Origin: Escherichia phage ph0011 | Direction: 5' to 3' (one strand) | Sequence record: OP557969.1 | Length of the DNA stretch: 64,000 nt | Shown here: positions 7,613-55,987 of the stretch, one piece after another | Layout of the letters: the number at the start of each line of letters is the position of its first letter | How positions within the stretch are numbered: position 1 is the stretch's first letter | Program-made: the position numbers and the translations under genes | The notes under the pieces: model-generated | What the model was told of the DNA's origin: nothing | Seen by the model: the letters and a program-made list of their open reading frames with translations, nothing else | The model's database searches: none

Positions 7613-8069
7613 AGATGACCTTATTAATGGTGAGGGGGTGAGGTGCTCCCTTTTTGTTAGTGGGTGTAGCCATTGTTGTGCCAAATGCTTCAACGAAAAG
7701 GCATGGGATTATAGAAGTGGCCAAGAGTTCAGTACTGAAACAATTGATATAATTTTAGCTGAACTCAGTAAACCGTACATTAGTGGGTTATCACTACTTG
7801 GTGGAGATCCACTAATGAAAAAGAACATCGAAACAATTTTAGAACTATGTAAAATTGTAAAAGATACTTATCCAAATAAAACTATTTGGTGCTGGAGTGG
7901 GTATACTTTAGAAGAGATTATGGATAATCATGCATCTCCAATACTGGAGTACATAGATGTATTGGTTGATGGTAAATTCATAGAAGCAGAAAAGAATTTA
8001 GAATTACCATTTAGAGGCTCTAATAATCAACGTATTCTTCGCAAAGGCGTAGATTATGCATTATCTTGA
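7590..8069 (+). CDS. nrdG: anaerobic ribonucleotide reductase activating protein (radical SAM)
   Basis: N-terminal Cys cluster GCSHCCAKCFN typical of NrdG-type activases; position adjacent to nrdD. Confidence 0.85.
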   Translation: MNYQTIIKDDLINGEGVRCSLFVSGCSHCCAKCFNEKAWDYRSGQEFSTETIDIILAELSKPYISGLSLLGGDPLMKKNIETILELCKIVKDTYPNKTIWCWSGYTLEEIMDNHASPILEYIDVLVDGKFIEAEKNLELPFRGSNNQRILRKGVDYALS

Positions 8070-8096
8070 TATTACAGAAATGTGGAAATATATGAA

Positions 8097-8121
8097 GAAG
8101 CACCCTTTGGGTGCTTTTTTT
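8097..8121 (+). terminator. intrinsic terminator
   Basis: gcaccc-ttt-gggtgc hairpin followed by 7 T. Confidence 0.7.
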
Positions 8122-8128
8122 ATAATAT

Positions 8129-8136
8129 TATAAATA
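8129..8136 (+). promoter_or_regulatory. T4-type late promoter motif TATAAATA
   Basis: exact TATAAATA about 30 nt upstream of the 8168 start. Confidence 0.55.
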
Positions 8137-8167
8137 CACTATGAATATCTAGATAGAAGGGATATAT

Positions 8168-10867
8168 ATGGCAAATAAAATATATGGTGGTATTGATGTT
8201 ACACACAATGTCACAGTAAAAGGTAAGAGAAGTGCTCAGAGCATCAATGATGACGTATTTGATGAAAACGGCAATCTCACAATAGATGCATATACACAAA
8301 ATGATATGTTAGAAATGGTTGGTATGTTACCAATTTCTCGTTATGGTACACAAAACTATCTACCTGCTGGGGTTAATGGTACAACAGTTGGTTCTTCAGA
8401 AAATATTAATTCCAGAAATACAAAATTATTTTTGGAAGATGATAACACTTTAGTAATGTTACGTCCAGGTACTAATGGTAGTACTCAAGGTGTTTATTAT
8501 AGTTATATGACCCAAGCAGTAGGTACAACAAATACAAGTCGTATGGTTAATACTACTCGTGCATATAAACCCAATTACTTTGGTGCAGCATACGCAGTTT
8601 ATTTGTACCCAAGTAGTAATGATATTACTTGCGGTTTAGTGAGAATGGAGAATACCGATGGTACATATGTTGATAAAGTTTTTGTGTCAGATAATAATGG
8701 TACATTGAATGATGCAATGCACACTGGTATTATTCTATCAGATCATACAGCAGTACAACCTTTTGGTGCAATACAATTTGTTATTCGTGCAGAAGATGGT
8801 GCATTATATTTTTTTAGTTTAGACACACCAAATAATACTCTTAAAATATCCGTTACTAAAGTTACTTTTAGTCCAAGTAATAACCCAGGTGGTGGTACTT
8901 ATAGTATTACTAGAATTACTGGTTGGACTACAAGAACTTTTTATAATGCAATGATAGCTGATGAGAACATTGTTCCTACGATGAAAATAAATTCAACAAA
9001 TACCAATGATACTCCATACGTTTTAATTCCAAGCGGTATTATTGGGTTTGGTGTTTATATGACAGATCCAGATTTATATGTTGCACAGAGATCAGGTACA
9101 TCTACATTCAAATTTAGATTATGTGGTGATATGTGGATGAGTAATGGTAGATATGACATACGACCACAACATAGTTTTAGTATGACTTTTGATGTTGCAA
9201 CGAAGCAATGTGCACTCGATAATATGACAACGACTACACCAGTTGCTGTTTATGACAATGGTTCTAGCATGAATGCAACTGGACCTTGCTTGACAACTGA
9301 CCCATTTTATCTTCATGCAGGTGCACGTAATATTTTCAGTAATTATTGCTATATTCCATCAACAGGGGATGCGTTTTGTTCATTTTCACCAAACCTAGCA
9401 GAACCATTGAATTTATCATATGCAAAATACCCACCAAAATCTTTATTTGATTTGATGGATGTTAGAAGTGTGTCAGCAACTAATTTTATTAATGGTGTAG
9501 TAACACCAAGATTTGGTTCAGCAGTTGGGTCATACCAAGTAGGTGTAGAGTTATTACCAAATAACAGTACTAAACAATATTCAAGACGTTCTGGTGATGG
9601 TCGTTTTTTTCCATCCTATGCTGTTCATAAATCTACACCAAACTTTACATTCAAGTCGTTGAATTATGGTACAGTACCTGGTTATGAACCAACACCTGAC
9701 AGAAATTTCATAACCACACCAGAATCACGCATTTTTATAAGTTCAATATCTGGTTCAAACGTCACTACTAATGGTGGTGTTTTGGTTGCTGACATTAGAA
9801 CATCAACACCAATTAGTTTTGATTATAAAGGTAATGTACTGAATAATGGTACAATCAGTATGTCTCAAGATATAATGAATGCTATTAGGAATTCAGAATT
9901 TGCTAAAGTTGCTGGTTCTTGGGATATATCCCCAGCATCAGTAAAAACATTATCAGTTTTCGTTCCACAACAAACTGATATTCCTGTTTTCGCGGTTCTT
10001 GCTGCAACAACTAATTCCAGAGGACTATATATTCGTATGATTGAATTAGGTGTTAATACAAGAACAGGAGATATTACAACGTGGGCATTTAAACGTTTAG
10101 TACATGAAAGTGTTCAAGCTCTGGATTACAAAACTGATGCCGGATATTATCTTGATAGTGGAAGTATTGGTATTACTATATATGATGCTGGTTCTTTTTA
10201 CTTCATTGGTGGTGGTATTCCAGGTTTCTTTCCTACAGTTGGTAATACAGCTTCACCTTTTTTTCGTGCTACTGTAGATAAAGCAAGTAAGCAATTTAAT
10301 AATTTCCATATAGCTGGTAATCGACCTATCTATGCATTAGACGGTCAACCATTTGCTTTACCTGGTATTGGATTTGGTATTCTTCAAAGTATAGATCTTC
10401 AAAACAAAACTATTTTTAGAAAGTATGGAACTACATTAGAAGATTATAATGCATGGACTGATAAAGGAGATCCATTCATTTGCGTTGTTTCACAAGACGT
10501 TGCTCAAGGTTTTATTATATACTTCACTGAAGAGACACCAGTACTGATATCAGGTAAGCACTATACATTACCAATATCAAATATTGATTTAACAAAAGTG
10601 AAAGCAAATCCTGCGAATACTACATTTTATGTGTATATTAAATTAGTGCAGGGTATTGCAAAGTATCATATATCAACAACTGAATTAGCTGAAACTCAGT
10701 CAATATTCTGGATTGGTACAGTGAAAACTAATGATTTACAAATAACCGAAATTAATATCGTTAAACGTTCTCGTTTAGATCTGTTTGGTGCATCCTATGA
10801 CGCTGCCGGAAGTTCATTCCCAGTTAGTTCTGGTTTCCCTTCAGGTTCTGGTAATGTGAATTGGTAA
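8168..10867 (+). CDS. large putative tail fibre / receptor-binding structural protein (paralogue A)
   Basis: 899 aa, S/T/G/N-rich; late promoter upstream; N-terminal LPISRYG motif and conserved ~90-aa C-terminal module shared with 10878 and 11479 ORFs. Confidence 0.5.
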   Translation: MANKIYGGIDVTHNVTVKGKRSAQSINDDVFDENGNLTIDAYTQNDMLEMVGMLPISRYGTQNYLPAGVNGTTVGSSENINSRNTKLFLEDDNTLVMLRPGTNGSTQGVYYSYMTQAVGTTNTSRMVNTTRAYKPNYFGAAYAVYLYPSSNDITCGLVRMENTDGTYVDKVFVSDNNGTLNDAMHTGIILSDHTAVQPFGAIQFVIRAEDGALYFFSLDTPNNTLKISVTKVTFSPSNNPGGGTYSITRITGWTTRTFYNAMIADENIVPTMKINSTNTNDTPYVLIPSGIIGFGVYMTDPDLYVAQRSGTSTFKFRLCGDMWMSNGRYDIRPQHSFSMTFDVATKQCALDNMTTTTPVAVYDNGSSMNATGPCLTTDPFYLHAGARNIFSNYCYIPSTGDAFCSFSPNLAEPLNLSYAKYPPKSLFDLMDVRSVSATNFINGVVTPRFGSAVGSYQVGVELLPNNSTKQYSRRSGDGRFFPSYAVHKSTPNFTFKSLNYGTVPGYEPTPDRNFITTPESRIFISSISGSNVTTNGGVLVADIRTSTPISFDYKGNVLNNGTISMSQDIMNAIRNSEFAKVAGSWDISPASVKTLSVFVPQQTDIPVFAVLAATTNSRGLYIRMIELGVNTRTGDITTWAFKRLVHESVQALDYKTDAGYYLDSGSIGITIYDAGSFYFIGGGIPGFFPTVGNTASPFFRATVDKASKQFNNFHIAGNRPIYALDGQPFALPGIGFGILQSIDLQNKTIFRKYGTTLEDYNAWTDKGDPFICVVSQDVAQGFIIYFTEETPVLISGKHYTLPISNIDLTKVKANPANTTFYVYIKLVQGIAKYHISTTELAETQSIFWIGTVKTNDLQITEINIVKRSRLDLFGASYDAAGSSFPVSSGFPSGSGNVNW

Positions 10868-27125: not shown

Positions 27126-27153
27126 TTGACATAAAACAAAAACATGCTATAAT
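27126..27153 (+). promoter_or_regulatory. sigma70-type promoter TTGACA-16nt-TATAAT with TGn extended -10
   Basis: perfect hexamers TTGACA (27126) and TATAAT (27148) with 16-nt spacer, upstream of lysozyme gene. Confidence 0.6.
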
Positions 27154-27270
27154 ACTTAAACATTTGAAAAGAACGTTTTTGTACTGTAGAAAGTCCGATG
27201 AGGCTTTTGCAAAATGGCCTCTTTGCCATCTTTGTGATTGCCCATCTTAACAATCAACAAAGGAGGCGTT

Positions 27271-28197
27271 TTGAAACAAGCGAAAAAAGCACTGAAAACT
27301 AAAATTGCCGTAGGCGTATTAGTTTCATCAGCCCTATTCGCTGCTATTGGATTTTATGGTTTTTCACGACATGATCATGCACCATCATTAGACGAAAGTC
27401 AGGTGCATAATTTGAAACCACAGTTGACTCAAATTCAAAAGCAGGAACTACCACAGGTATCAGTACCGAAAACAGTTCCAAGCAGCGAGAAACATTATAC
27501 GGTTCAACCTGGTGATAGTTATTATTCTATTGCTAAAAAGTTTAAACCTAAAAATGTACAACTTGAAGAGTATGTTATTTTGTTGAAAAATATCAATTTA
27601 AATGCTACACTTCATACTTCTCAGGGTATCTTTATCCCAACAAAAGAGGATTTGAAGAACATATTATTACCAGATGTGACTGTTCTGTTTGATTACACTG
27701 ATCCAGAAATTATCAATCACATTAAAGAAGCTGAAGGTTCAATAGAATACCAGTCCAAGAATAAACGACGTTTACTGGGTGGTCAGGTTGGTGTTTCATA
27801 TCGTAATTCTAAATTTTATCCATACCGTGATGTAAAAGGTAACTATACGATTGGGTACGGTCACTACCTTGGTAAGAATGCTTCTGATGCAAGTAAGTAC
27901 CGTAACGGAATTACCAAATCACAAGCACATAAACTTTTATTGGATGACATGGAACGAATTAATAATGATTTAATTTTATTATTGAAGAAGCGAAATGCGA
28001 CAAACCTTACGGTCGAACAACAACGAATTTTATTTGAGATGGCATTTACTCTAGGAGTTGACAAGTTAAACACTTTCAATAAACTATGGAAAAGCGTTGA
28101 AAATCAAAATTACAACAAGTTCAAAAAAGAAATTAAGAATTCTCTATGGTATCGTCAAGTAGGAAACCGTGCAGAATTGTTGTTAAGCTCACTCTAA
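27271..28197 (+). CDS. peptidoglycan hydrolase: N-terminal signal-anchor/TM + LysM + T4-lysozyme-family (GH24) domain; likely TTG start
   Basis: AGGAGG 4 nt before TTG 27271 (ORF track uses TTG 27238); Gly/Ala-rich TM IAVGVLVSSALFAAIGFYGF; LysM YTVQPGDSYYSIAKKF; lysozyme motifs NYTIGYGHYLG and SLWYRQVGNRAELL. Confidence 0.8.
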   Translation: MKQAKKALKTKIAVGVLVSSALFAAIGFYGFSRHDHAPSLDESQVHNLKPQLTQIQKQELPQVSVPKTVPSSEKHYTVQPGDSYYSIAKKFKPKNVQLEEYVILLKNINLNATLHTSQGIFIPTKEDLKNILLPDVTVLFDYTDPEIINHIKEAEGSIEYQSKNKRRLLGGQVGVSYRNSKFYPYRDVKGNYTIGYGHYLGKNASDASKYRNGITKSQAHKLLLDDMERINNDLILLLKKRNATNLTVEQQRILFEMAFTLGVDKLNTFNKLWKSVENQNYNKFKKEIKNSLWYRQVGNRAELLLSSL

Positions 28198-46364: not shown

Positions 46365-47864
46365 ATGGATAATTTTTTCAGTACTGAAACTACCACCGTT
46401 CCTAATGGATATGTATATACGTCCCATACTGGTGCAAAATATGTATTTCTAGAAGGATTTTGGTTCAATGATAGTAATATGTTAATGGTAGACCCTAGAA
46501 AATACCCATCCATGTACGCAAGTGCTTGTCAGCAAATTGTCGAGCATAATCTGGCTTCAAATGAATATAAGATTGGTAAAAAATATATTATTGAAGGCAA
46601 AGAGTGTACATTTATTGGAGAAAACCGATTTGAATCAAAAGATGGTATTCTACTAACTGAAAGTGAAATCATCACTGAGTTAATGGCAGACGACCATCGC
46701 GTATATAATGTGTCTAAAGAAACACTCCAAAAAGAATGGAATGACTTAAAATTCTATATTCTTCCCCCATATGCTGATGATATTTCTATTCCAGCAGGTA
46801 TGGAAGTTGGTGGATTTAAATATGTTCCTAAAAAACATCGTTTTGTTGATATTAAATCGGGTCATCCGGTTGATCCAGTAATGACCCGTAAACTGTCAGA
46901 TGAAGGTATGCGTATTGCCCGTCAGTTAGCATCAAAAAATAAACTAATTCCAATCAAATCTACATTAGTTCAAGGTAATTCTCGATGTGAATGGAATGGT
47001 AAAGATTTTTGTGACAACGATGGTAATGTGGTAATCCCAGAGCAAAATGCACATACAATCATTAATGCGTATCAGAAATTTGTTAAAAACCACCCTGAAG
47101 ACTTCCCAACTCTAACTGGGGAACACGAACATAGTGAACAACGATTCGGTTCAGGTGAAAAACCAGAACAACGAGGTAAACCGACAGCTTTTGCAACAAA
47201 AGAATCAATCAATGAAGCTGATGAAGAAATTGAAGATTTTGAAAGCATTACGGTCCCTGATGGTTATCGAATGACTTCTTCTAAAGGAAAAACCTATACG
47301 AAGAAGAACAACATGTGGTATGATATTGAAACGAAAAAACGACTCAATACTAGTGCATCTAAAAGTGTTGAACTAGCAGCCCAGCGTGACATTTTCCGTC
47401 ATAACAATTCAGGGGCAATGAAAATCGGCACAAAAGTTAAATCCAAACAAGGAAAAGAATATTCTTATGTTGGTGGTGATAGATTTATTAGTGCCGATGG
47501 GAAGTTTATTCCAAAAGCAACCGCAGAGAAATTACTGGCTAAGTATGATGAAGAGAAAGCAGTTCAAGATGATGTGAAACCGGAAGATTCTAGTACTGAA
47601 CAACTTCATCAAAAAGAAGAACCAAAAACCAAACCAGAAAACATTTCTGAACCTGAGCCAGAAAAGGAATCTGAAACTGATAACATTGCTGGTGATGATG
47701 TACAATCATTGGCTTCTAAAATCAAAGAGTCTCCTTATGCTAAAAAAATCACAGTACTGTTAACTCGTGGTGATGAGGTTTCTCTACTTGCTGCTGACAT
47801 TTTACTTTCAGGTAAAAAGGATGAAACAGTGCAAATTTTAAAATCATTAAATAATAATGATTGA
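46365..47864 (+). CDS. hypothetical protein with internal duplicated module
   Basis: TVPNGYVYTSHTGAKY ... KIGKKYIIEGKECTFIGENRF repeated as TVPDGYRMTSSKGKTY ... KIGTKVKSKQGKEYSYVGGDRF. Confidence 0.5.
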   Translation: MDNFFSTETTTVPNGYVYTSHTGAKYVFLEGFWFNDSNMLMVDPRKYPSMYASACQQIVEHNLASNEYKIGKKYIIEGKECTFIGENRFESKDGILLTESEIITELMADDHRVYNVSKETLQKEWNDLKFYILPPYADDISIPAGMEVGGFKYVPKKHRFVDIKSGHPVDPVMTRKLSDEGMRIARQLASKNKLIPIKSTLVQGNSRCEWNGKDFCDNDGNVVIPEQNAHTIINAYQKFVKNHPEDFPTLTGEHEHSEQRFGSGEKPEQRGKPTAFATKESINEADEEIEDFESITVPDGYRMTSSKGKTYTKKNNMWYDIETKKRLNTSASKSVELAAQRDIFRHNNSGAMKIGTKVKSKQGKEYSYVGGDRFISADGKFIPKATAEKLLAKYDEEKAVQDDVKPEDSSTEQLHQKEEPKTKPENISEPEPEKESETDNIAGDDVQSLASKIKESPYAKKITVLLTRGDEVSLLAADILLSGKKDETVQILKSLNNND

Positions 47865-47886
47865 TAACTAAAAGGATTTATTTAAA

Positions 47887-48840
47887 ATGACAAAAAAAAT
47901 TAATGAAGCACAAGTTAAAATCGATATCGCAGGTTTAGAATCTGATGATTTGGAAACACTATCACGTATGCTGGCTCTTGCTGGGCAAGCAGAACACAAA
48001 GACCCAGTTGTTGCTCAAGTTCCTTCGATGGGGGCAATTTCACCATCAATTCCACCTATTGCACCACTAGACATTGATTCAATTGGAGCGGATGAAGAAA
48101 TCAGTGATATGGAAACTTCAATTGAAGATCCACTAGCATCGGCAGTTGATGAACTTTCCTCAGATGTTGCTGATTTTGGTGCTGAAGGTGATGAAGTTAG
48201 TATGGATGCTGAATTTTCAGAACCAGATGCTGAAGAAGATTTATCACTAGACTTGAGTGGTCAACCACAACTTGAATCCGTTGAAGATGACGATGAGGAA
48301 GAAGAAATTATTGAAGAAGAATTTGATTTTAGTCGTATGCTATCACTTGCTGGTATCAACGAAGAAGATGAGGATTTTTCAGTAGAGGACGAACCTTCTG
48401 ATAATAAAGAACAATTTCTTCCAGACCTAAGCATCGTTGAAGATGAGGAACCATCAAACAATACTGATTATGGTCCATATAGCTCAGAAGCTGATGCGGT
48501 ACGTGACGGCGAACTAAAAACTAATGGTGTTGAAGGTGATAATTTTGTTGTAATTGTGAAAGGAAACCAATTTTATTGGAGACGTGTTGTAGATGAAGAC
48601 ATTGACAATCGTCCAGAACCTGAGTATTATGACAATGAAGGAAATGAACATCGTGTTCACAAATTTGAACCAAAAGCACCAGGTACTGCACTAGGTGATA
48701 ACCCACTAAATGTTAATGAAAGTGAAGATGATGATTCACCAGAAGGTAACATTGATCTTGAAGATGATTCTGATGAAAAAGTAGAAGATATTTTTGAAAG
48801 TCTCCAAGAAAAATATAAGAAATTTTTAGGAGATATTTAA
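47887..48840 (+). CDS. highly acidic D/E-rich protein (scaffold-like or DNA-mimic-like; function unknown)
   Basis: long runs of D/E (DDDEEEEIIEEEFDF, EDEDFSVEDEPSD). Confidence 0.5.
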   Translation: MTKKINEAQVKIDIAGLESDDLETLSRMLALAGQAEHKDPVVAQVPSMGAISPSIPPIAPLDIDSIGADEEISDMETSIEDPLASAVDELSSDVADFGAEGDEVSMDAEFSEPDAEEDLSLDLSGQPQLESVEDDDEEEEIIEEEFDFSRMLSLAGINEEDEDFSVEDEPSDNKEQFLPDLSIVEDEEPSNNTDYGPYSSEADAVRDGELKTNGVEGDNFVVIVKGNQFYWRRVVDEDIDNRPEPEYYDNEGNEHRVHKFEPKAPGTALGDNPLNVNESEDDDSPEGNIDLEDDSDEKVEDIFESLQEKYKKFLGDI

Positions 48841-48841
48841 T

Positions 48842-49237
48842 ATGACATACAATTATCGTGAACTTGTTGAAGCATTGGATGAAATTACAGGTCGAGATGA
48901 AGATGAAAGTTTTTCAGTTCAAGTCGAATCTGATGTAGTAGCAGTTGATATTCTTAAGGATATCACTAAATGCCTCATTGACGTTGTTGATAATATTAAA
49001 TCTGGTGAAGATCAAAAAGAAATTGTCGAAAAACTACAAAAAGCACGTGACATTTTGTCTGACATGAGATATGATGATGAAAGTACTGAAGTTGCTGATG
49101 AAGAAGTTCTGGAAGCAATTGCTGGTTGTTTTGGAACCGAAGGTATGGGTCCAACAATTGACCAAGATGGAGTCCAGCACTATAACGAACCAGGTGCACC
49201 AACATATGCAGCACGTCAAGGTTATGTTGGAGACTGA
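48842..49237 (+). CDS. hypothetical acidic protein
   Basis: ORF track; start 1 nt after upstream stop. Confidence 0.45.
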   Translation: MTYNYRELVEALDEITGRDEDESFSVQVESDVVAVDILKDITKCLIDVVDNIKSGEDQKEIVEKLQKARDILSDMRYDDESTEVADEEVLEAIAGCFGTEGMGPTIDQDGVQHYNEPGAPTYAARQGYVGD

Positions 49238-49634: not shown

Positions 49635-49881
49635 TTGACAAGTTGAAAATGATGTGATATAATAAACATCACAATGAAAGTTTTCAAGTTTCACATGATG
49701 TGAGATTGAAAAAAAGAAAAAATAGTTGACGAGTTGAAATGATGTGATATAATGTTCACATCAAGACAACAAAGAGATTTACCTTTTAAACACACGGATG
49801 ATTCATGAAGTAACAAAGGAACTGATAAGTTAAAATATTTTAACACAGTTCCTTTACTTTTGCACACGGATTGGCTATAAT
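49635..49881 (+). promoter_or_regulatory. tandem promoter/leader region: P1 TTGACA-17-TATAAT (49635/49658), P2 TTGACG-16-TATAAT (49726/49748), P3 -10 TATAAT (49876); inverted repeats overlap the -10 elements
   Basis: consensus hexamers with TGa extended -10; GATGTGA/TCACATC inverted repeat flanks P2 -10; CACACGGAT repeated at 49792 and 49863. Confidence 0.6.
49815..49862 (+). terminator. leader hairpin/attenuator candidate between P2 and P3
   Basis: 10-bp stem aaaggaactg/cagttccttt with 21-nt loop, then acttttg. Confidence 0.4.
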
Positions 49882-49922: not shown

Positions 49923-51248
49923 ATGACTACTCAAAACGATATCCTGAACGTTAAACTGACTCCAAAGAAAGCTAAAGAAGCAATGGCACTAGCTGACATG
50001 ATTCAAGATAGCCTGATGATTTGGGGTAGCCCAGGTATCGGTAAGTCTGCAATCGCTCGTCAATATGCTGATGAAAATTATCCACTGCGTAAAGACAACG
50101 AAGCCAAAATTGAGTTAATGAAACAACAAATTGAAGCTGACCCAGAGAATGCTGAACAGCTACGTCGTGAACTAGCTGCATTTGAAGCAAAACTGATCGA
50201 CCAAGATACAAACTTTATCGATTTCCGTTTGTCTCAGATTGAACCAAGTGACCTTCGTGGTATTCCAGTTCCAGAGAAACTTTTCCGTAAAACTGATGGT
50301 TCTCTCCTAAAAGAATCTGAGCTTGCTGAAGCAAAAGATTATGTAGCTGAAACAGCAGTAGTATGGGCAGCACCTAAAGTACTGAAATTACCAGATGATT
50401 GGAAAGGTGTTATTCTGTTTGACGAAATTAACTCTGCAATGCCAATTGTTCAGGCAGCGTCTTATCAGCTAATTCTCGACCGTTGTGTTGGTGAGATGAA
50501 GCTACCGAAAACTGCCCTGATTCTTGCAGCAGGTAACCGTGAAACTGATGGCGGTGTGACGTTCTCACTGGCTACACCACTACGTGACCGTATGACACAC
50601 ATTGAGATGATTCCTTATCATCAAGATTGGATCAACGATTATGCAATTGGTAAACGTTTGAACCCAGCAACTGTTGCGTTCATCAACAACACAGGTTCTA
50701 AGTACTTTAACACTCTTAGCCCACAAGATCCTTCTCACAGCGGTGGTACATCTCCGCGTTCATGGGAAGCAGTAGCACGCTACGAAGATCTGAAGAAAAC
50801 TAAGACGATTGATAAAGAAGTATTCCGTGCAATGATTGCGGGTCGTGTAGGTGAAGGTGTTGCAACTGAATACATTGAGTACGTTGATAACGTTGCAAAA
50901 CTCCCAGATACCATGTCTATTCTGTCTGGTGAAATCAAAGATATCGATGCGTCTCTTGATATTTCTGCTAACTACTTTATCACACTGAACTTGGTTTATA
51001 AAATTATTGACCTGTACAATGAGAAGCAAGAACAACGTCTACCAGTGGAAGAATGGGGTAAATTGTGCAACAACTTCATCACCTTCCTAGACCATAACTT
51101 CTCTGCAACTCAAGCAGAATTGGCAGTGCTGGCAATCCGTACCATTACACTACATAAGGTTTTGATTTCCATTAAAGATGTACCAGCGTTTAAAGATTTT
51201 ATCGCTAAGTACTCTGAACTAGTTCGTAAAGCACGCTCTCTTGGGTAA
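49923..51248 (+). CDS. MoxR-type AAA+ ATPase (CobS-like)
   Basis: Walker A GSPGIGKS, Walker B ILFDEINSA, overall MoxR/CobS-like layout. Confidence 0.75.
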   Translation: MTTQNDILNVKLTPKKAKEAMALADMIQDSLMIWGSPGIGKSAIARQYADENYPLRKDNEAKIELMKQQIEADPENAEQLRRELAAFEAKLIDQDTNFIDFRLSQIEPSDLRGIPVPEKLFRKTDGSLLKESELAEAKDYVAETAVVWAAPKVLKLPDDWKGVILFDEINSAMPIVQAASYQLILDRCVGEMKLPKTALILAAGNRETDGGVTFSLATPLRDRMTHIEMIPYHQDWINDYAIGKRLNPATVAFINNTGSKYFNTLSPQDPSHSGGTSPRSWEAVARYEDLKKTKTIDKEVFRAMIAGRVGEGVATEYIEYVDNVAKLPDTMSILSGEIKDIDASLDISANYFITLNLVYKIIDLYNEKQEQRLPVEEWGKLCNNFITFLDHNFSATQAELAVLAIRTITLHKVLISIKDVPAFKDFIAKYSELVRKARSLG

Positions 51249-51270
51249 TTAACAAAGAGTTGTTGACAAG

Positions 51271-51298
51271 AAGGATACCTAATGGTATCCTTCTTTTA
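51271..51298 (+). terminator. intrinsic terminator
   Basis: aaggatacc/ggtatcctt 9-bp stem, T-rich tail. Confidence 0.7.
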
Positions 51299-51322
51299 TC
51301 TTAACTAAACGAGGAAATATAC

Positions 51323-52747
51323 ATGTCCGATAACAAAACTACATCTGTGTTCAATGAAGTATCCCCAGAACTTCAGAAAGAATGTCAAGACCGTCTAGTT
51401 CTGGCTCGTACATCTTTGATGTTGACTGCACCATTCTTCGGTGTATTGGCTTCGCGTTTGCGTCCAGTTCCAAATAACACATGGTGTCGTACTTTGGCAG
51501 TTGATGGTAAACATTTATTTTACAATGTAGAATTTGTAATGGGTGTTCAAGATCCAGCAAAAAAGAAAGCATATGAAGAGGCTATTCGCGAAAAGCACCC
51601 AGAAGTTACTGAAGAACAATTAAAAGAAATGACTGAAGGTCTGACAGATGAAAACATTATTGCAGTAATTTGTCATGAAATCTTGCACTGTGCATACGAT
51701 CACTTCCTTCGTCGTGGTATGCGTGATCCACAGCGTTATAACCGTGCAGCAGATTATGCGATTAACCAAATCATCGTTCGTGAGAAAATTGGTAAAATCC
51801 AAAGCTCATGGTTGTATGATAAAAAATATGAAGGAATGACTGCTGAAGAGATTTATAATCTTCTTGAAGAAGAAGAGCAACAGCAAGATGGTGAAGGTGA
51901 AGGTACACCACAAAGTGGCAGCGGTGAAGGTGAAGGCAAAGATCGCGGGACATTTGGTGATATCAAGGATGGTAAGGGTAAACCAAAAGGTACTACAATT
52001 GACCAACATGACGTTCCACAAGAAGGTCAAGAAGGTGGTTCTAGTGAACAACAAAAACGTGATTATATGGATGATTTTAAAACAGCAATGATGAATGCTG
52101 CTCGTGCTGGTGGTACACCAGCAGAAATCGCTCGTATGATTAATAACTTCAAAGAACCAAAGATTGATTGGCGTTCTAAGCTTCAACGCACTCTTCGTAG
52201 TTGGTTGAAGTCTGATGCAACTTATCAAAATCCAGCACGTCGTTCATGGGGTGCAGGTTTTGGTTCTAATGGTTCATTTTATGGTAATCCAATTTATCCA
52301 GGGATGAAACCAGATGATGATATTGATATTGCGATTGCTCTGGATGCTTCTGGATCTATTTCCGAAGACATGCTTCGTGATTTCATTAGTGAAGTTCTTG
52401 GTATCACTAAACAATTTAAACAGTTTAAGATTCGTATCATGACATTTGATACTGAAGTTTATACTGTCAAGGATTACAAAACTGGTGAAGAACGTAAGAT
52501 TCTGGAATATCCAGTAAAAGGTGGTGGCGGTACTGATTTTGAAGCAGTGTGGGTTCACATGAAGAATGACAATTATAAGCCTAAACAGCTTGTCATGTTT
52601 ACTGATGGTGAGCCATGGCAGTCATGGGGTGATCCAAACTATTGCAAAACATTGTTTGTGATTCACAGTAATCCAAATAAAGTTGCACCATTTGGTGAAA
52701 CAGTACACTACGAGTATGAAGCAGACAAAAAACGTCAACGTAGTTAA
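51323..52747 (+). CDS. VWA-domain protein with N-terminal HExxH metallopeptidase-like motif (CobT-like partner of MoxR ATPase)
   Basis: MIDAS motif ALDASGSIS and FTDGEP; HEILHCAYDH motif in N-terminal half. Confidence 0.7.
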   Translation: MSDNKTTSVFNEVSPELQKECQDRLVLARTSLMLTAPFFGVLASRLRPVPNNTWCRTLAVDGKHLFYNVEFVMGVQDPAKKKAYEEAIREKHPEVTEEQLKEMTEGLTDENIIAVICHEILHCAYDHFLRRGMRDPQRYNRAADYAINQIIVREKIGKIQSSWLYDKKYEGMTAEEIYNLLEEEEQQQDGEGEGTPQSGSGEGEGKDRGTFGDIKDGKGKPKGTTIDQHDVPQEGQEGGSSEQQKRDYMDDFKTAMMNAARAGGTPAEIARMINNFKEPKIDWRSKLQRTLRSWLKSDATYQNPARRSWGAGFGSNGSFYGNPIYPGMKPDDDIDIAIALDASGSISEDMLRDFISEVLGITKQFKQFKIRIMTFDTEVYTVKDYKTGEERKILEYPVKGGGGTDFEAVWVHMKNDNYKPKQLVMFTDGEPWQSWGDPNYCKTLFVIHSNPNKVAPFGETVHYEYEADKKRQRS

Positions 52748-52759
52748 GTACTAAATAAT

Positions 52760-52790
52760 GAGAACGGAATTTTCCGTTCTCTTCTTTTTA
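52760..52790 (+). terminator. intrinsic terminator
   Basis: gagaacgga/tccgttctc perfect stem, loop attt, T-run. Confidence 0.8.
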
Positions 52791-53753: not shown

Positions 53754-54347
53754 ATGACAAAGATTGAATTAGATGAAGCGATTAAAGGTTTATCTAATGT
53801 GTGTTTTAGTGGCGGGGCAGCAGGTGCTGACCGCCTTTTTTCTATCTATGCAAAAGATAATGGATTTGAAGTTGTTAATTTTTCATTTAAAGGTCATGAG
53901 CATAGTGTAGATGAAAATACTATATTAGAAATACCATCCAATATTCTATCTGATATTTCTATATTAAAGCAACTAAACATTGCATGTTACTCGTTGCAGA
54001 GAAAAGTACCAAAGCCTGGTTCTTATGTTTATAACTTACTTGCAAGGAATAGTTATCAAATACTTAATACAGAAAGAATATATTGTATTGCAAATATTAC
54101 ATCACCAACTAAGGTGAGTGGTGGTACTGCATGGGCAGTGCAGATGTACATGGATTCAGTTGAAAATCCTGAAATTTATTGTTATGATATGAATTCACGT
54201 TCTGTATTTTATTTTGACACAGTACTGAAAGAGTTTACTGAAACATTCTCAATACCAGAACCACACGGTAACTGGACTGGGATTGGTTCACGTAATGCTA
54301 CACAAAAACACATGGAACATTTTATTACATTTTTCAAGGAAGTATAA
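53754..54347 (+). CDS. Rossmann-like nucleotide-binding protein with GGxxGxD motif (SLOG/DprA/LOG-like; tentative)
   Basis: FSGGAAGADRLF near N-terminus resembles the glycine-rich loop of SLOG-superfamily domains. Confidence 0.35.
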   Translation: MTKIELDEAIKGLSNVCFSGGAAGADRLFSIYAKDNGFEVVNFSFKGHEHSVDENTILEIPSNILSDISILKQLNIACYSLQRKVPKPGSYVYNLLARNSYQILNTERIYCIANITSPTKVSGGTAWAVQMYMDSVENPEIYCYDMNSRSVFYFDTVLKEFTETFSIPEPHGNWTGIGSRNATQKHMEHFITFFKEV

Positions 54348-55987
54348 TGAAACAACTACAAGAACTATATCAAAAAATTCTAGATGAAGGCGTGGAAAGT
54401 GTTGACCGTACTGGTGTTGGTACAACCAAACTTATCGGTCAACAAATGCGTTTCGACCTTAACGATGGTTTTCCAGCAGTGACGACAAAACGTCTAGCAT
54501 GGAAAACAATGGTTGCTGAACTTTTATTTTTTATTAAAGGTATTCCAGACCGTCGAGTGATGCAGGAATTTTTACATGGTGAATTTAATGAAGATAAGAA
54601 CGATATTTGGAAAGGTAATTGTGTTGATATGAAAAATAAAAATCCATTAAAATTTAATGGATACAATTTAGGTAATATGTACCCAGTTTACTGGAGACGA
54701 ATGTATAAACCTGTTCCTAAAACAGTTAAAGTTAAACGTAAAAAAGACTTTGATTTTGAATATATTGAAAAATATAAATCATTTTATGATGATGTAGAAA
54801 TTGAAAAACATCATAAATCGGGTCAAACATTCATTGATATTAGGGGAGATGAGTTAGAATATCTTGGATTCAATGGACAGTATGAAAATAAACGACATTA
54901 TTTGAAATATAAGAACACGGGAACTATAATCAAACTCAATACATCTGAAATTGATATTAAACATAATAAACTTAATAGTGGTGAAGATTATTATAAAAAA
55001 AATTCAGTCGGTGGATATTTGGGTGCACCACGTGAAGTTCTTTCAAATGATCCATTGAACTCAAAAGTACAGAGCCTATGGTATAATATGCTTTCTCGTG
55101 TAAACACCTCTCCCAACTATAATAATATTAGTGTTAGCCCAAGGTGGTATAATTATTATAACTTCCTAACTGACATTCGTACTATACCACTGTTTTTTGA
55201 ATGGTTGGATGATCCAACATATTATGAATTAGATAAAGATTATTTTGGTTCATCTGTTTATTCAAGAAATACATGTACATTTTTACCCAAACATATCAAT
55301 CAAAAATTAATAAGAAAACGCAATGACTGTGCATTGGAAGTTGATGGAATACTTTATTATTCATTTACATGTTTTTATAAATCAATTTATGGTGGGAAAA
55401 CACAACCAAAAGATCCATTTACTTTTTTAGAAAATAACGGTCATACTTATATTATTCACGAAGAGACAGATGAATATGTATACCGTCCACAATTGTTTAT
55501 TGATCAATTAGAAACTGTTATTGAAAATATTAAACATGTCACCTTGAATGAAAATCATCCGGCTGGACGTAGATTGATTATGGATTCTTGGAATCCATCA
55601 TGGGAGGACGATTCAGTTCTGGGAATATGTCACCCATTTGTTCAATTCTTTGTAGTGAATGGAAAGCTGTCATGTGAGTTTTATATGCGTTCATCTGACA
55701 CATTTCTTGGATTACCACTGAATATATCATCATATGCATTATTGACGCACATGATTGCACAAATTACAGGTCTAGAAGTAGGAGAGCTAATTTACACTGC
55801 TGGTGATTGTCACATTTATAAAAATCACATTGAACAAGTAAAAGAACAACTACAACGAAAACCACGTGCATTACCTGAATTATGGATTGATCCTACTATT
55901 ACTGATATTGAAGATTTCACAATGGATTCTTTTAAATTGATTAATTACGATCCAATGCCAACAATTAAAGCACCGATGGCTGTATAA
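54347..55987 (+). CDS. td: thymidylate synthase (ThyA/Td) with about 260-aa in-frame internal insertion
   Basis: N-terminal DRTGVGT ... GFPAVTTKRLAWK and C-terminal CHPFVQFFV ... FLGLPLNISSYALLTHMIA ... IKAPMAV match ThyA/T4 Td; 546 aa versus about 265-290 aa for ordinary ThyA. Confidence 0.88.
   Translation: MKQLQELYQKILDEGVESVDRTGVGTTKLIGQQMRFDLNDGFPAVTTKRLAWKTMVAELLFFIKGIPDRRVMQEFLHGEFNEDKNDIWKGNCVDMKNKNPLKFNGYNLGNMYPVYWRRMYKPVPKTVKVKRKKDFDFEYIEKYKSFYDDVEIEKHHKSGQTFIDIRGDELEYLGFNGQYENKRHYLKYKNTGTIIKLNTSEIDIKHNKLNSGEDYYKKNSVGGYLGAPREVLSNDPLNSKVQSLWYNMLSRVNTSPNYNNISVSPRWYNYYNFLTDIRTIPLFFEWLDDPTYYELDKDYFGSSVYSRNTCTFLPKHINQKLIRKRNDCALEVDGILYYSFTCFYKSIYGGKTQPKDPFTFLENNGHTYIIHEETDEYVYRPQLFIDQLETVIENIKHVTLNENHPAGRRLIMDSWNPSWEDDSVLGICHPFVQFFVVNGKLSCEFYMRSSDTFLGLPLNISSYALLTHMIAQITGLEVGELIYTAGDCHIYKNHIEQVKEQLQRKPRALPELWIDPTITDIEDFTMDSFKLINYDPMPTIKAPMAV

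Follow-up and report, generated by a model that had tools for sequence, protein, structure and literature searches.

A two-gene module spanning nucleotides 49923 to 52747 was analyzed in a 64,000-nucleotide stretch of DNA from Escherichia phage ph0011 (sequence record OP557969.1), here referred to as the window. The window belongs to a RaK2/121Q-like jumbo coliphage of the genus Asteriusvirus, and the 3.3 kb around the module share 92.4-92.7% DNA identity with phages UE-S1, 121Q, phAPEC6, and PBECO4. A first-pass annotation, made from the letters of the DNA alone, had described the two open reading frames (ORFs) as a MoxR-type AAA+ ATPase and a VWA partner with a metal ion–dependent adhesion site (MIDAS) and an N-terminal HExxH motif. 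Both ORFs are present on the + strand, every motif quoted for them (GSPGIGKS, ILFDEINSA, DASGS, TDGEP, and HExxH) was located, and the assignment is borne out by conservation across 43 homologues of the first protein (ORF A) and 41 of the second (ORF B) and by PHROG and Pfam matches (Table 1). The module has been described before, and the present finding rediscovers a published pair: it is the widely conserved gp24/gp25 module of phage N4, an identity that the first-pass annotation did not recognize.

Domain architecture of the two proteins

ORF A matches the PHROG family phrog_1297, named 'ATPase', at 1.1e-106 in a profile search. All of its matches to Pfam AAA families fall under the curated cut-offs, including those to AAA_3 (PF07726; 16.0 versus 27) and AAA_5 (PF07728; 15.7 versus 22), so that its class was assigned on the basis of motifs, structure, and distant homologues. 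The AAA+ catalytic set is complete: Walker A (G35, G38, K41, and S42), Walker B (D167 and E168), sensor 1 (N205), the arginine finger (R223), and the sensor-2 SPR (P278 and R279) are each either unvarying across the 43 homologues or kept in at least 90% of them. The LxDR arginine and the SPR sensor 2 are typical of MoxR proteins. Homologues of about 30% identity and ~360 residues carry precomputed AAA_3/AAA_5 domains, and the homologue from Brucella clears the AAA_5 cut-off (28.4 versus 22). A profile search of the PDB aligned only the P-loop region, and the fold of ORF A is nearest to solved members of the MoxR clade. ORF A is therefore a MoxR-class AAA+ ATPase (AAA_3/AAA_5, helix-2-insert clade), which presumably assembles into a hexameric ring. 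Relative to the ~360-residue relatives, the alignment of the 43 homologues places two lineage-specific insertions in the jumbo-phage proteins, a helical hairpin that follows the Walker A helix and an extended beta-hairpin, the latter at the site of the helix-2 insert of the clade.

ORF B matches DUF2201_N (PF13203) at 2.6e-35 (122.8 bits, cut-off 23.2), the VWA-like DUF2201 (PF09967) at 7e-21 (75.1 bits, cut-off 26.4), and phrog_1314 at 7.9e-128. The peptidase domain is N-terminal and the VWA domain C-terminal, and the DUF2201 family that the first-pass annotation had guessed for this protein was the right one. Profile searches thus recovered the proposed domains of ORF B in both Pfam and PHROG, and for ORF A they gave phrog_1297 together with sub-threshold Pfam AAA matches. 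Across the 41 diverse homologues of ORF B, no variation occurs at H118, E119, and H122 or in the complete MIDAS, whose DxSxS...T...D metal-site residues sit on a VWA fold, and H127 is kept in at least 90%. The invariant zincin motif, as read from the alignment, points to proteolysis rather than chelation.

Homologues of ORF B are commonly annotated as 'HNH endonuclease', as in NC_025447 (121Q), NC_027364 (PBECO4), NC_008720 (N4 gp25), and phrog_1314. The Pfam scan of ORF B contained no nuclease family, and DUF2201_N, the linker, and DUF2201 account for its whole length. The label was rejected as a propagated misannotation, which apparently spreads from the name of the PHROG family and needs correction. 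Among the defence-system models of PADLOC, none matched either ORF A or ORF B.

The first-pass annotation had further called the pair CobS/CobT-like and raised metal insertion as a function. CobS/CobT, like the present pair, combine an AAA_5-type ATPase with a VWA-containing partner. By analogy the pair would load a metal cofactor into a phage or host enzyme, as NorQ/NorD, CoxD/CoxE, BchI/BchD, and CobS/CobT are known to do, and the VWA domains of NorD and BchD are among the structural matches of ORF B. However, searches of Pfam and NCBIfam to E = 0.1 gave no match to CobS (CobS_N or NCBIfam CobS) or to CobT for either protein, and no chelatase family was matched; the Pfam Mg_chelatase match reaches 16 bits, short of its 20.3 cut-off, and lies over the P-loop. 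In ORF B the peptidase domain replaces the N-terminal region of CobT, and chelatases have no use for an invariant HExxH zincin domain. The pair is not co-conserved with any candidate metalloenzyme client, and no cobalamin or porphyrin genes lie nearby. Membership in the CobS/CobT family was rejected on the family searches and the gene context, the name remains a loose analogy at most, and metal insertion is regarded as very improbable.

Promoters, hairpins, and neighboring genes

The region upstream of the pair had been taken for an elaborate promoter region marking a discrete expression unit, and this description holds. Two tandem sigma70 promoters, P1 and P2, precede ORF A, the leader of the module is 300 nucleotides (nt) long, and a terminator-like hairpin closes the unit. 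P1 is one of only two 12/12 sigma70 sites in the window. The other (27126-27153, + strand) also has an extended -10 and lies 85 nt upstream of a 319-residue ORF at 27238-28197. Both P1 and P2 are kept in UE-S1 and phAPEC6, and P2 is kept also in a RaK2-like locus with ~80% protein identity (L010). Tandem consensus promoters of this type argue for transcription by the host RNA polymerase and for an early gene unit, and they suggest early timing of the module in this phage. The RaK2 paper and the PA5oct transcriptome preprint make no mention of the two genes.

The leader hairpin is present in the Asteriusvirus phages UE-S1 and phAPEC6 and absent from L010; it could serve as an attenuator or mark the 3' terminus of a short leader RNA, ~100-190 nt in length. 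A scan of the leader and intergenic regions against Rfam returned sub-threshold chance matches only. An inverted repeat (49733-49747 and 49756-49770) spans the -10 of P2, and repeats of the GATGTGA/TCACATC type, which look like operator sites of some regulator, occur at 49733-49770 and, between P1 and P2, at 49681-49713.

A second terminator-like hairpin separates ORF A from ORF B. Hairpins were counted when they had a perfect stem of at least 6 bp with at least 3 G-C pairs, a loop of 3-8 nt, and a T-rich tail. By this rule, 48 of 66 distinct ATPase–VWA spacers (73%) contain an internal hairpin, whereas among the other same-strand spacers of these loci the count is 55 of 546 (10%; odds ratio 24, Fisher p ~1e-27, a value that overstates independence because the loci are related). 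The stem sequences vary widely among loci, which indicates that structure rather than sequence is what is kept. The arrangement suggests partial termination, which would leave the ATPase in excess over the VWA adaptor. The 167-nt gp24–gp25 spacer of N4 has no simple terminator-type hairpin, so that the internal-terminator rule is not universal; this absence fits the reading of those genes by a phage polymerase. To our knowledge an internal ATPase–VWA hairpin has not been reported before, although no literature search was aimed at it.

Table 1. Features of the module and its flanks (window coordinates; aa, amino acids)
Feature	Nucleotides	Strand	Residues	Details
Promoter P1	49635-49663	+		TTGACA-17-TATAAT; 12/12 sigma70 consensus; extended -10 (TGn)
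Promoter P2	49726-49753	+		TTGACG-16-TATAAT; 11/12; TGn; tandem, ~90 nt downstream of P1
Leader hairpin	49815-49862	+		10-bp outer and 6-bp inner stem, then U-rich run; dG -15.1 kcal/mol, z -4.6
Weak third promoter	49853-49881	+		10/12; its -35 overlapped by leader hairpin
ORF A	49923-51248	+		441 aa, 49.5 kDa; MoxR/AAA_5-clade AAA+ ATPase; N4 gp24-like, phrog_1297
ORF A Walker A	50025-50048	+	35-42	GSPGIGKS
ORF A insertion 1	50076-50207	+	52-95	Helical hairpin after Walker A helix; ~45 aa
ORF A insertion 2	50280-50357	+	120-145	Extended beta-hairpin; ~25 aa
ORF A Walker B	50412-50438	+	164-172	ILFDEINSA
ORF A sensor 1	50526-50543	+		AAGN
ORF A arginine	50577-50600	+		LxDR
ORF A sensor 2	50751-50765	+		SPR
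Hairpin between ORF A and ORF B	51268-51304	+		Terminator-like; 12-bp stem, 4-nt loop, then TTTTATCTT; dG -21.8, z -5.3
ORF B	51323-52747	+		474 aa, 54 kDa; zincin–VWA fusion; N4 gp25-like, phrog_1314
ORF B metallopeptidase domain		+	~1-310	DUF2201_N
ORF B HExxH	51674-51688	+	118-122	HEILH; HEILHCAYDH at 51674-51703
ORF B linker	51866-52054	+		Gly/Glu/Gln-rich, disordered
ORF B VWA domain		+	~334-461	DUF2201
ORF B MIDAS, DxSxS	52343-52357	+	341-345	DASGS (D341xS343xS345)
ORF B MIDAS, Thr	within 52520-52543	+	404	T404
ORF B MIDAS, Asp	52601-52615	+	427-431	D428 in TDGEP
Closing hairpin	52760-52781	+		Terminator-like; 9-bp stem and T-run; annotated terminator at same place in UE-S1

The genes directly upstream (46365-49237) fall in virion structural PHROGs (phrog_16305, 15988, and 14971), and downstream of the module lie small ORFs without assigned function, a SLOG/DprA-like protein, and a thymidylate synthase. 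The module thus starts a new unit at the border between the late structural and the nucleotide-metabolism blocks. The SLOG/DprA-like protein (53754-54347, + strand; 197 residues) has a weak SLOG/YspA-like Pfam match and a DprA-like PHROG match (phrog_768). The thymidylate synthase ORF that follows (54347-55987, + strand) encodes 546 residues, with the Pfam domain in two stretches; residues ~178-339 match PHROG families named HNH endonuclease, and the in-frame insertion of ~260 residues resembles an intein or a fused homing-endonuclease remnant. In phAPEC6 the enzyme has 309 residues and is accompanied by a separate ORF of 65 residues, and in UE-S1 it has 517 residues.

Distribution and linkage of the pair

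A translated search found the VWA-peptidase in 587 phage records, with RaK2-like, rV5-like, KB57-like, phiTE/CR9-like, N4-like, PA5oct-like, and Thermus phages among the carriers. A structural search added carriers of the ATPase, namely Bacillus phages G and PBS1 and Lactococcus phage KSY1. The VWA-peptidase is also encoded on 83 plasmids, 30 of which were typed as conjugative, and in bacterial genome assemblies. The pair is among the most widely conserved unexplained modules of virulent phages.

Linkage was assessed by running profiles of both proteins over all fetched loci, the viral loci being those with upstream sequence. In 79/79 viral loci the ATPase gene lies upstream of the VWA gene and shares its strand, the two being directly adjacent in 70 and a spacer of 0.4-1.6 kb apart in 9, and the same order and shared strand recur in 35 of 36 bacterial or plasmid loci. 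The rV5-like phages depart from this pattern, their two genes lying 3.6 kb apart on opposite strands. On conjugative plasmids of Burkholderia and Paraburkholderia, the module sits between a PRTRC cassette and VirB-type type IV secretion system (T4SS) genes. On a Brucella chromosome (L108), its neighbors are an ATP-dependent DNA ligase, an extra DnaN, and DUF4942, a setting that resembles a mobile element. A virion-specific role is made less likely by the preservation of one gene order in viral and cellular loci, conjugative plasmids among them. The pair is one functional module of mobile genetic elements, equivalent to N4 gp24/gp25.

Variations on this arrangement were also observed. A 352-kb JGI viral contig (L004) encodes a VWA-peptidase at 8001-9290 with no ATPase within 8 kb upstream and with ThyX nearby; it is among the few cases of an uncoupled pair. 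On the conjugative Burkholderia-type plasmid pBC201 (L128, 6906-10263) an extra gene of 316 residues lies between the ATPase and VWA genes, on pBcp895-1 (L127, 4643-10230), a plasmid of the same type, an IS21 insertion separates them, and in alphaproteobacterial chromosomal loci they are 1-1.8 kb apart, with small genes in between. The intervening genes of the plasmid and alphaproteobacterial loci may be additional components of the module.

Candidate functions and relation to known systems

Genetic evidence is available from a preprint in which transposon sequencing was used to assess the essentiality of phage genes, those of Bas54 included (bioRxiv 10.1101/2025.11.20.689424). Bas54 is the rV5-like phage MaxBurger. 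Its gene bas54_0063 ('MoxR ATPase') shares 97.8% DNA identity with bas53_0062, which falls in phrog_1297 (2.7e-110) and encodes a protein 25% identical to ORF A (3e-32). Its gene bas54_0055 ('putative metallopeptidase') is in the syntenic position, and the Bas53 counterpart falls in phrog_1314, the PHROG of ORF B. The 'anti-sigma factor' beside the Bas53 VWA gene was considered as a counterpart of ORF A and rejected, being unrelated to it.

Both Bas54 genes were classified as 'Non-essential' on Escherichia coli K-12, transposons having hit 60 of 64 TA sites in the ATPase gene and 81 of 86 in the VWA-peptidase gene. In the comparison of K-12 with the clinical isolate CFE311, the ATPase gene was depleted with a log2 fold change of -7.23 (adjusted p = 0) and the VWA-peptidase gene with -2.20 (p = 0.0009, adjusted p = 0.009), and the genes neighboring them were unaffected. 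CFE311 carries the DS-28 defence system, and an ATPase knockout of Bas54 is reported to be sensitive to cloned DS-28, as confirmed by plaque assays; the preprint does not comment on the VWA gene (bioRxiv 10.1101/2025.11.20.689424). DS-28 has been described just as a small, uncharacterised, plasmid-associated family. The depletion of the VWA-peptidase gene on CFE311 is supportive rather than strong, because it is one of 27 significant genes.

With moderate confidence, at about an even chance of being right, the module can be interpreted as an early-expressed, host-directed remodeller-protease that aids the incoming element. A host-directed role is favored because the Bas54 genes are dispensable and their requirement is host-specific, the pair occurs on conjugative plasmids and in phages with unrelated virions, its promoters are of early type, and the N4 genes belong to the middle class. 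The host RNA polymerase would transcribe the unit early from the tandem sigma70 promoters, and the internal hairpin would let part of the transcripts reach ORF B, yielding more ATPase than adaptor, which would suit a complex of ring and adaptor. ORF A would be the ring motor, presumably a hexamer, and ORF B its adaptor, physically coupled to it. In other MoxR–VWA systems, the metal site of the MIDAS grips an acidic residue of the client. Here the C-terminal VWA MIDAS would hold the client, and the N-terminal zincin of ORF B would cut it. The client is most likely a host protein, and its removal or remodelling would help the element to establish itself and, as part of this, to get past at least one defence system (DS-28 in the case of the rV5-like Bas54).

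Several observations weigh against this interpretation. The pair is among the 14 core genes of N4-like phages, an uncommon status for genes devoted to anti-defence and one that hints at a role of a more basic kind. In phAPEC6, the orthologue of ORF A, gp265c, was recovered from CsCl-purified virions (six unique peptides, 19% coverage), and in the window the genes directly upstream of the module encode virion proteins, so that a link to structure or assembly keeps some weight. The Bas54 evidence, taken from a preprint, concerns a homologue of 25% identity in another phage family, whose genes lie 3.6 kb apart on opposite strands; the depletion of the VWA gene is modest and shared with 26 other significant genes; and the need for the ATPase against DS-28 does not prove direct inhibition.

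These virion data support an alternative in which the MoxR–VWA machinery chaperones large tail or head structures and the peptidase processes structural proteins during assembly or maturation (Iyer et al. 2021). This function has been proposed for the 'group 2.2' jumbo phages (PMC7824862), and the plasmid-borne module adjoins the genes of another large machine, the T4SS. A precedent exists in the archaeal Acidianus two-tailed virus (ATV), whose MoxR-type ATPase p618 is paired with a VWA protein (PMC7824862, PMC7159879) and whose system is experimentally implied in extracellular tail growth, yet p618 was absent from the top 50 viral structural matches. Nor does the phAPEC6 virion list point to structure alone, as it also contains a topoisomerase, a RecA-like protein, SSB, and thymidylate synthase, and it does not include the VWA-peptidase. 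Insertion at ~94% of TA sites in the Bas54 genes on K-12, a distribution over myoviruses, N4-like podoviruses, plasmids, and chromosomal mobile-element regions that share no virion, consensus sigma70 promoters suggestive of early expression, and the middle class of the N4 genes all count against an assembly role, which is considered unlikely.

A second alternative retains the host as the target but places it outside immunity: a housekeeping protein, such as a nucleoid, replication, or proteostasis factor, would be remodelled or degraded in general host takeover, and the effect of DS-28 would be indirect. The core-gene status in N4-like phages is consistent with this possibility, as are the replication and nucleotide-metabolism genes that recur beside the module in several lineages: dCTP deaminase and rIIA in N4, rIIA/rIIB and a helicase in Bas54, thymidylate synthase in the window, ThyX in L004, dUTPase and thymidylate synthase in RG-2014, a 5'-3' exonuclease in L003, and DNA ligase and the extra DnaN in Brucella L108. 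Plasmid copies lie near the PRTRC cassette. However, no single neighboring gene family is conserved across lineages, and the Bas54 genes are dispensable on K-12, where no fitness cost was recorded, yet strongly host-specific, a pattern predicted by variable immunity rather than by a conserved housekeeping target. This explanation is judged as unlikely as the assembly role.

The host-directed remodeller-protease can also be given a more specific and more far-reaching form, which is offered tentatively. The N4 gp24/gp25-type module would then be a universal counter-immunity machine of conjugative plasmids and of phages from many families, in which the MIDAS captures, the ring pulls, and the zincin cuts a host defence protein, with the conserved internal terminator setting the output; the ATPase of jumbo phages may even travel inside the virion and act on arrival. 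If this were true, it would be the first AAA+-powered anti-defence protease. A counter-defence role would more generally define anti-immunity factors of a new mechanistic class and provide a handle on DS-28, and it would bear on host-range prediction in phage therapy, for which rV5-like and RaK2-like phages are candidates. Brought together in the present analysis are the linkage across mobile elements, the internal terminator, and the depletion of both genes on a host with DS-28, which together yield a testable hypothesis.

The closest known counterparts of the module have been annotated, in part, by their relation to N4. In phAPEC6, gp265c is named 'MoxR ATPase' and gp264c 'N4 gp25-like protein', and related entries are the 'Gp24-like protein' of RaK2 and the 'gp25-like protein' of K64-1. 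N4 gp24 matches the ATPase profile at 1.9e-55 and N4 gp25 the VWA profile at 2.9e-42, and the two genes are adjacent in N4. They are transcribed as middle-class genes and make up two of just 14 genes in the core set of the N4-like phages (PMC4193335). A literature search on the essentiality of gp24/gp25 returned nothing usable. The N4 pair and the present one share PHROGs, domain architecture, the HExxH and DxSxS motifs, and the ATPase-then-VWA order. They differ in the two insertions of the jumbo-phage ATPase (~45 residues, helical, and ~25 residues, beta-hairpin), in an extra segment before the HExxH and a long acidic/Gly linker in the jumbo-phage VWA protein, and in transcription, the N4 genes being read as middle genes by N4 RNA polymerase II, whereas consensus sigma70 promoters are found here. 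The rV5/Bas54 pair, unlike the present one, consists of separated, divergent genes.

The same module, matched by description, was reported in the group 2.2 jumbo phages as a MoxR ATPase and a vWA protein with an N-terminal metallopeptidase, for which virion assembly and proteolytic processing were proposed (Iyer et al. 2021, Viruses 13:63; PMC7824862); the wider distribution and the Bas54 genetics do not favor the assembly proposal. The ATV system, in contrast to ORF B, is without a peptidase domain. Among cellular systems, CbbQ/CbbO, NorQ/NorD, and RavA/ViaA have marginal sequence similarity to the present pair and lack the zincin peptidase that is fused here to the VWA partner. Their clients are defined enzymes (Rubisco, NO reductase, and respiratory complexes), whereas the module described here travels on mobile elements.

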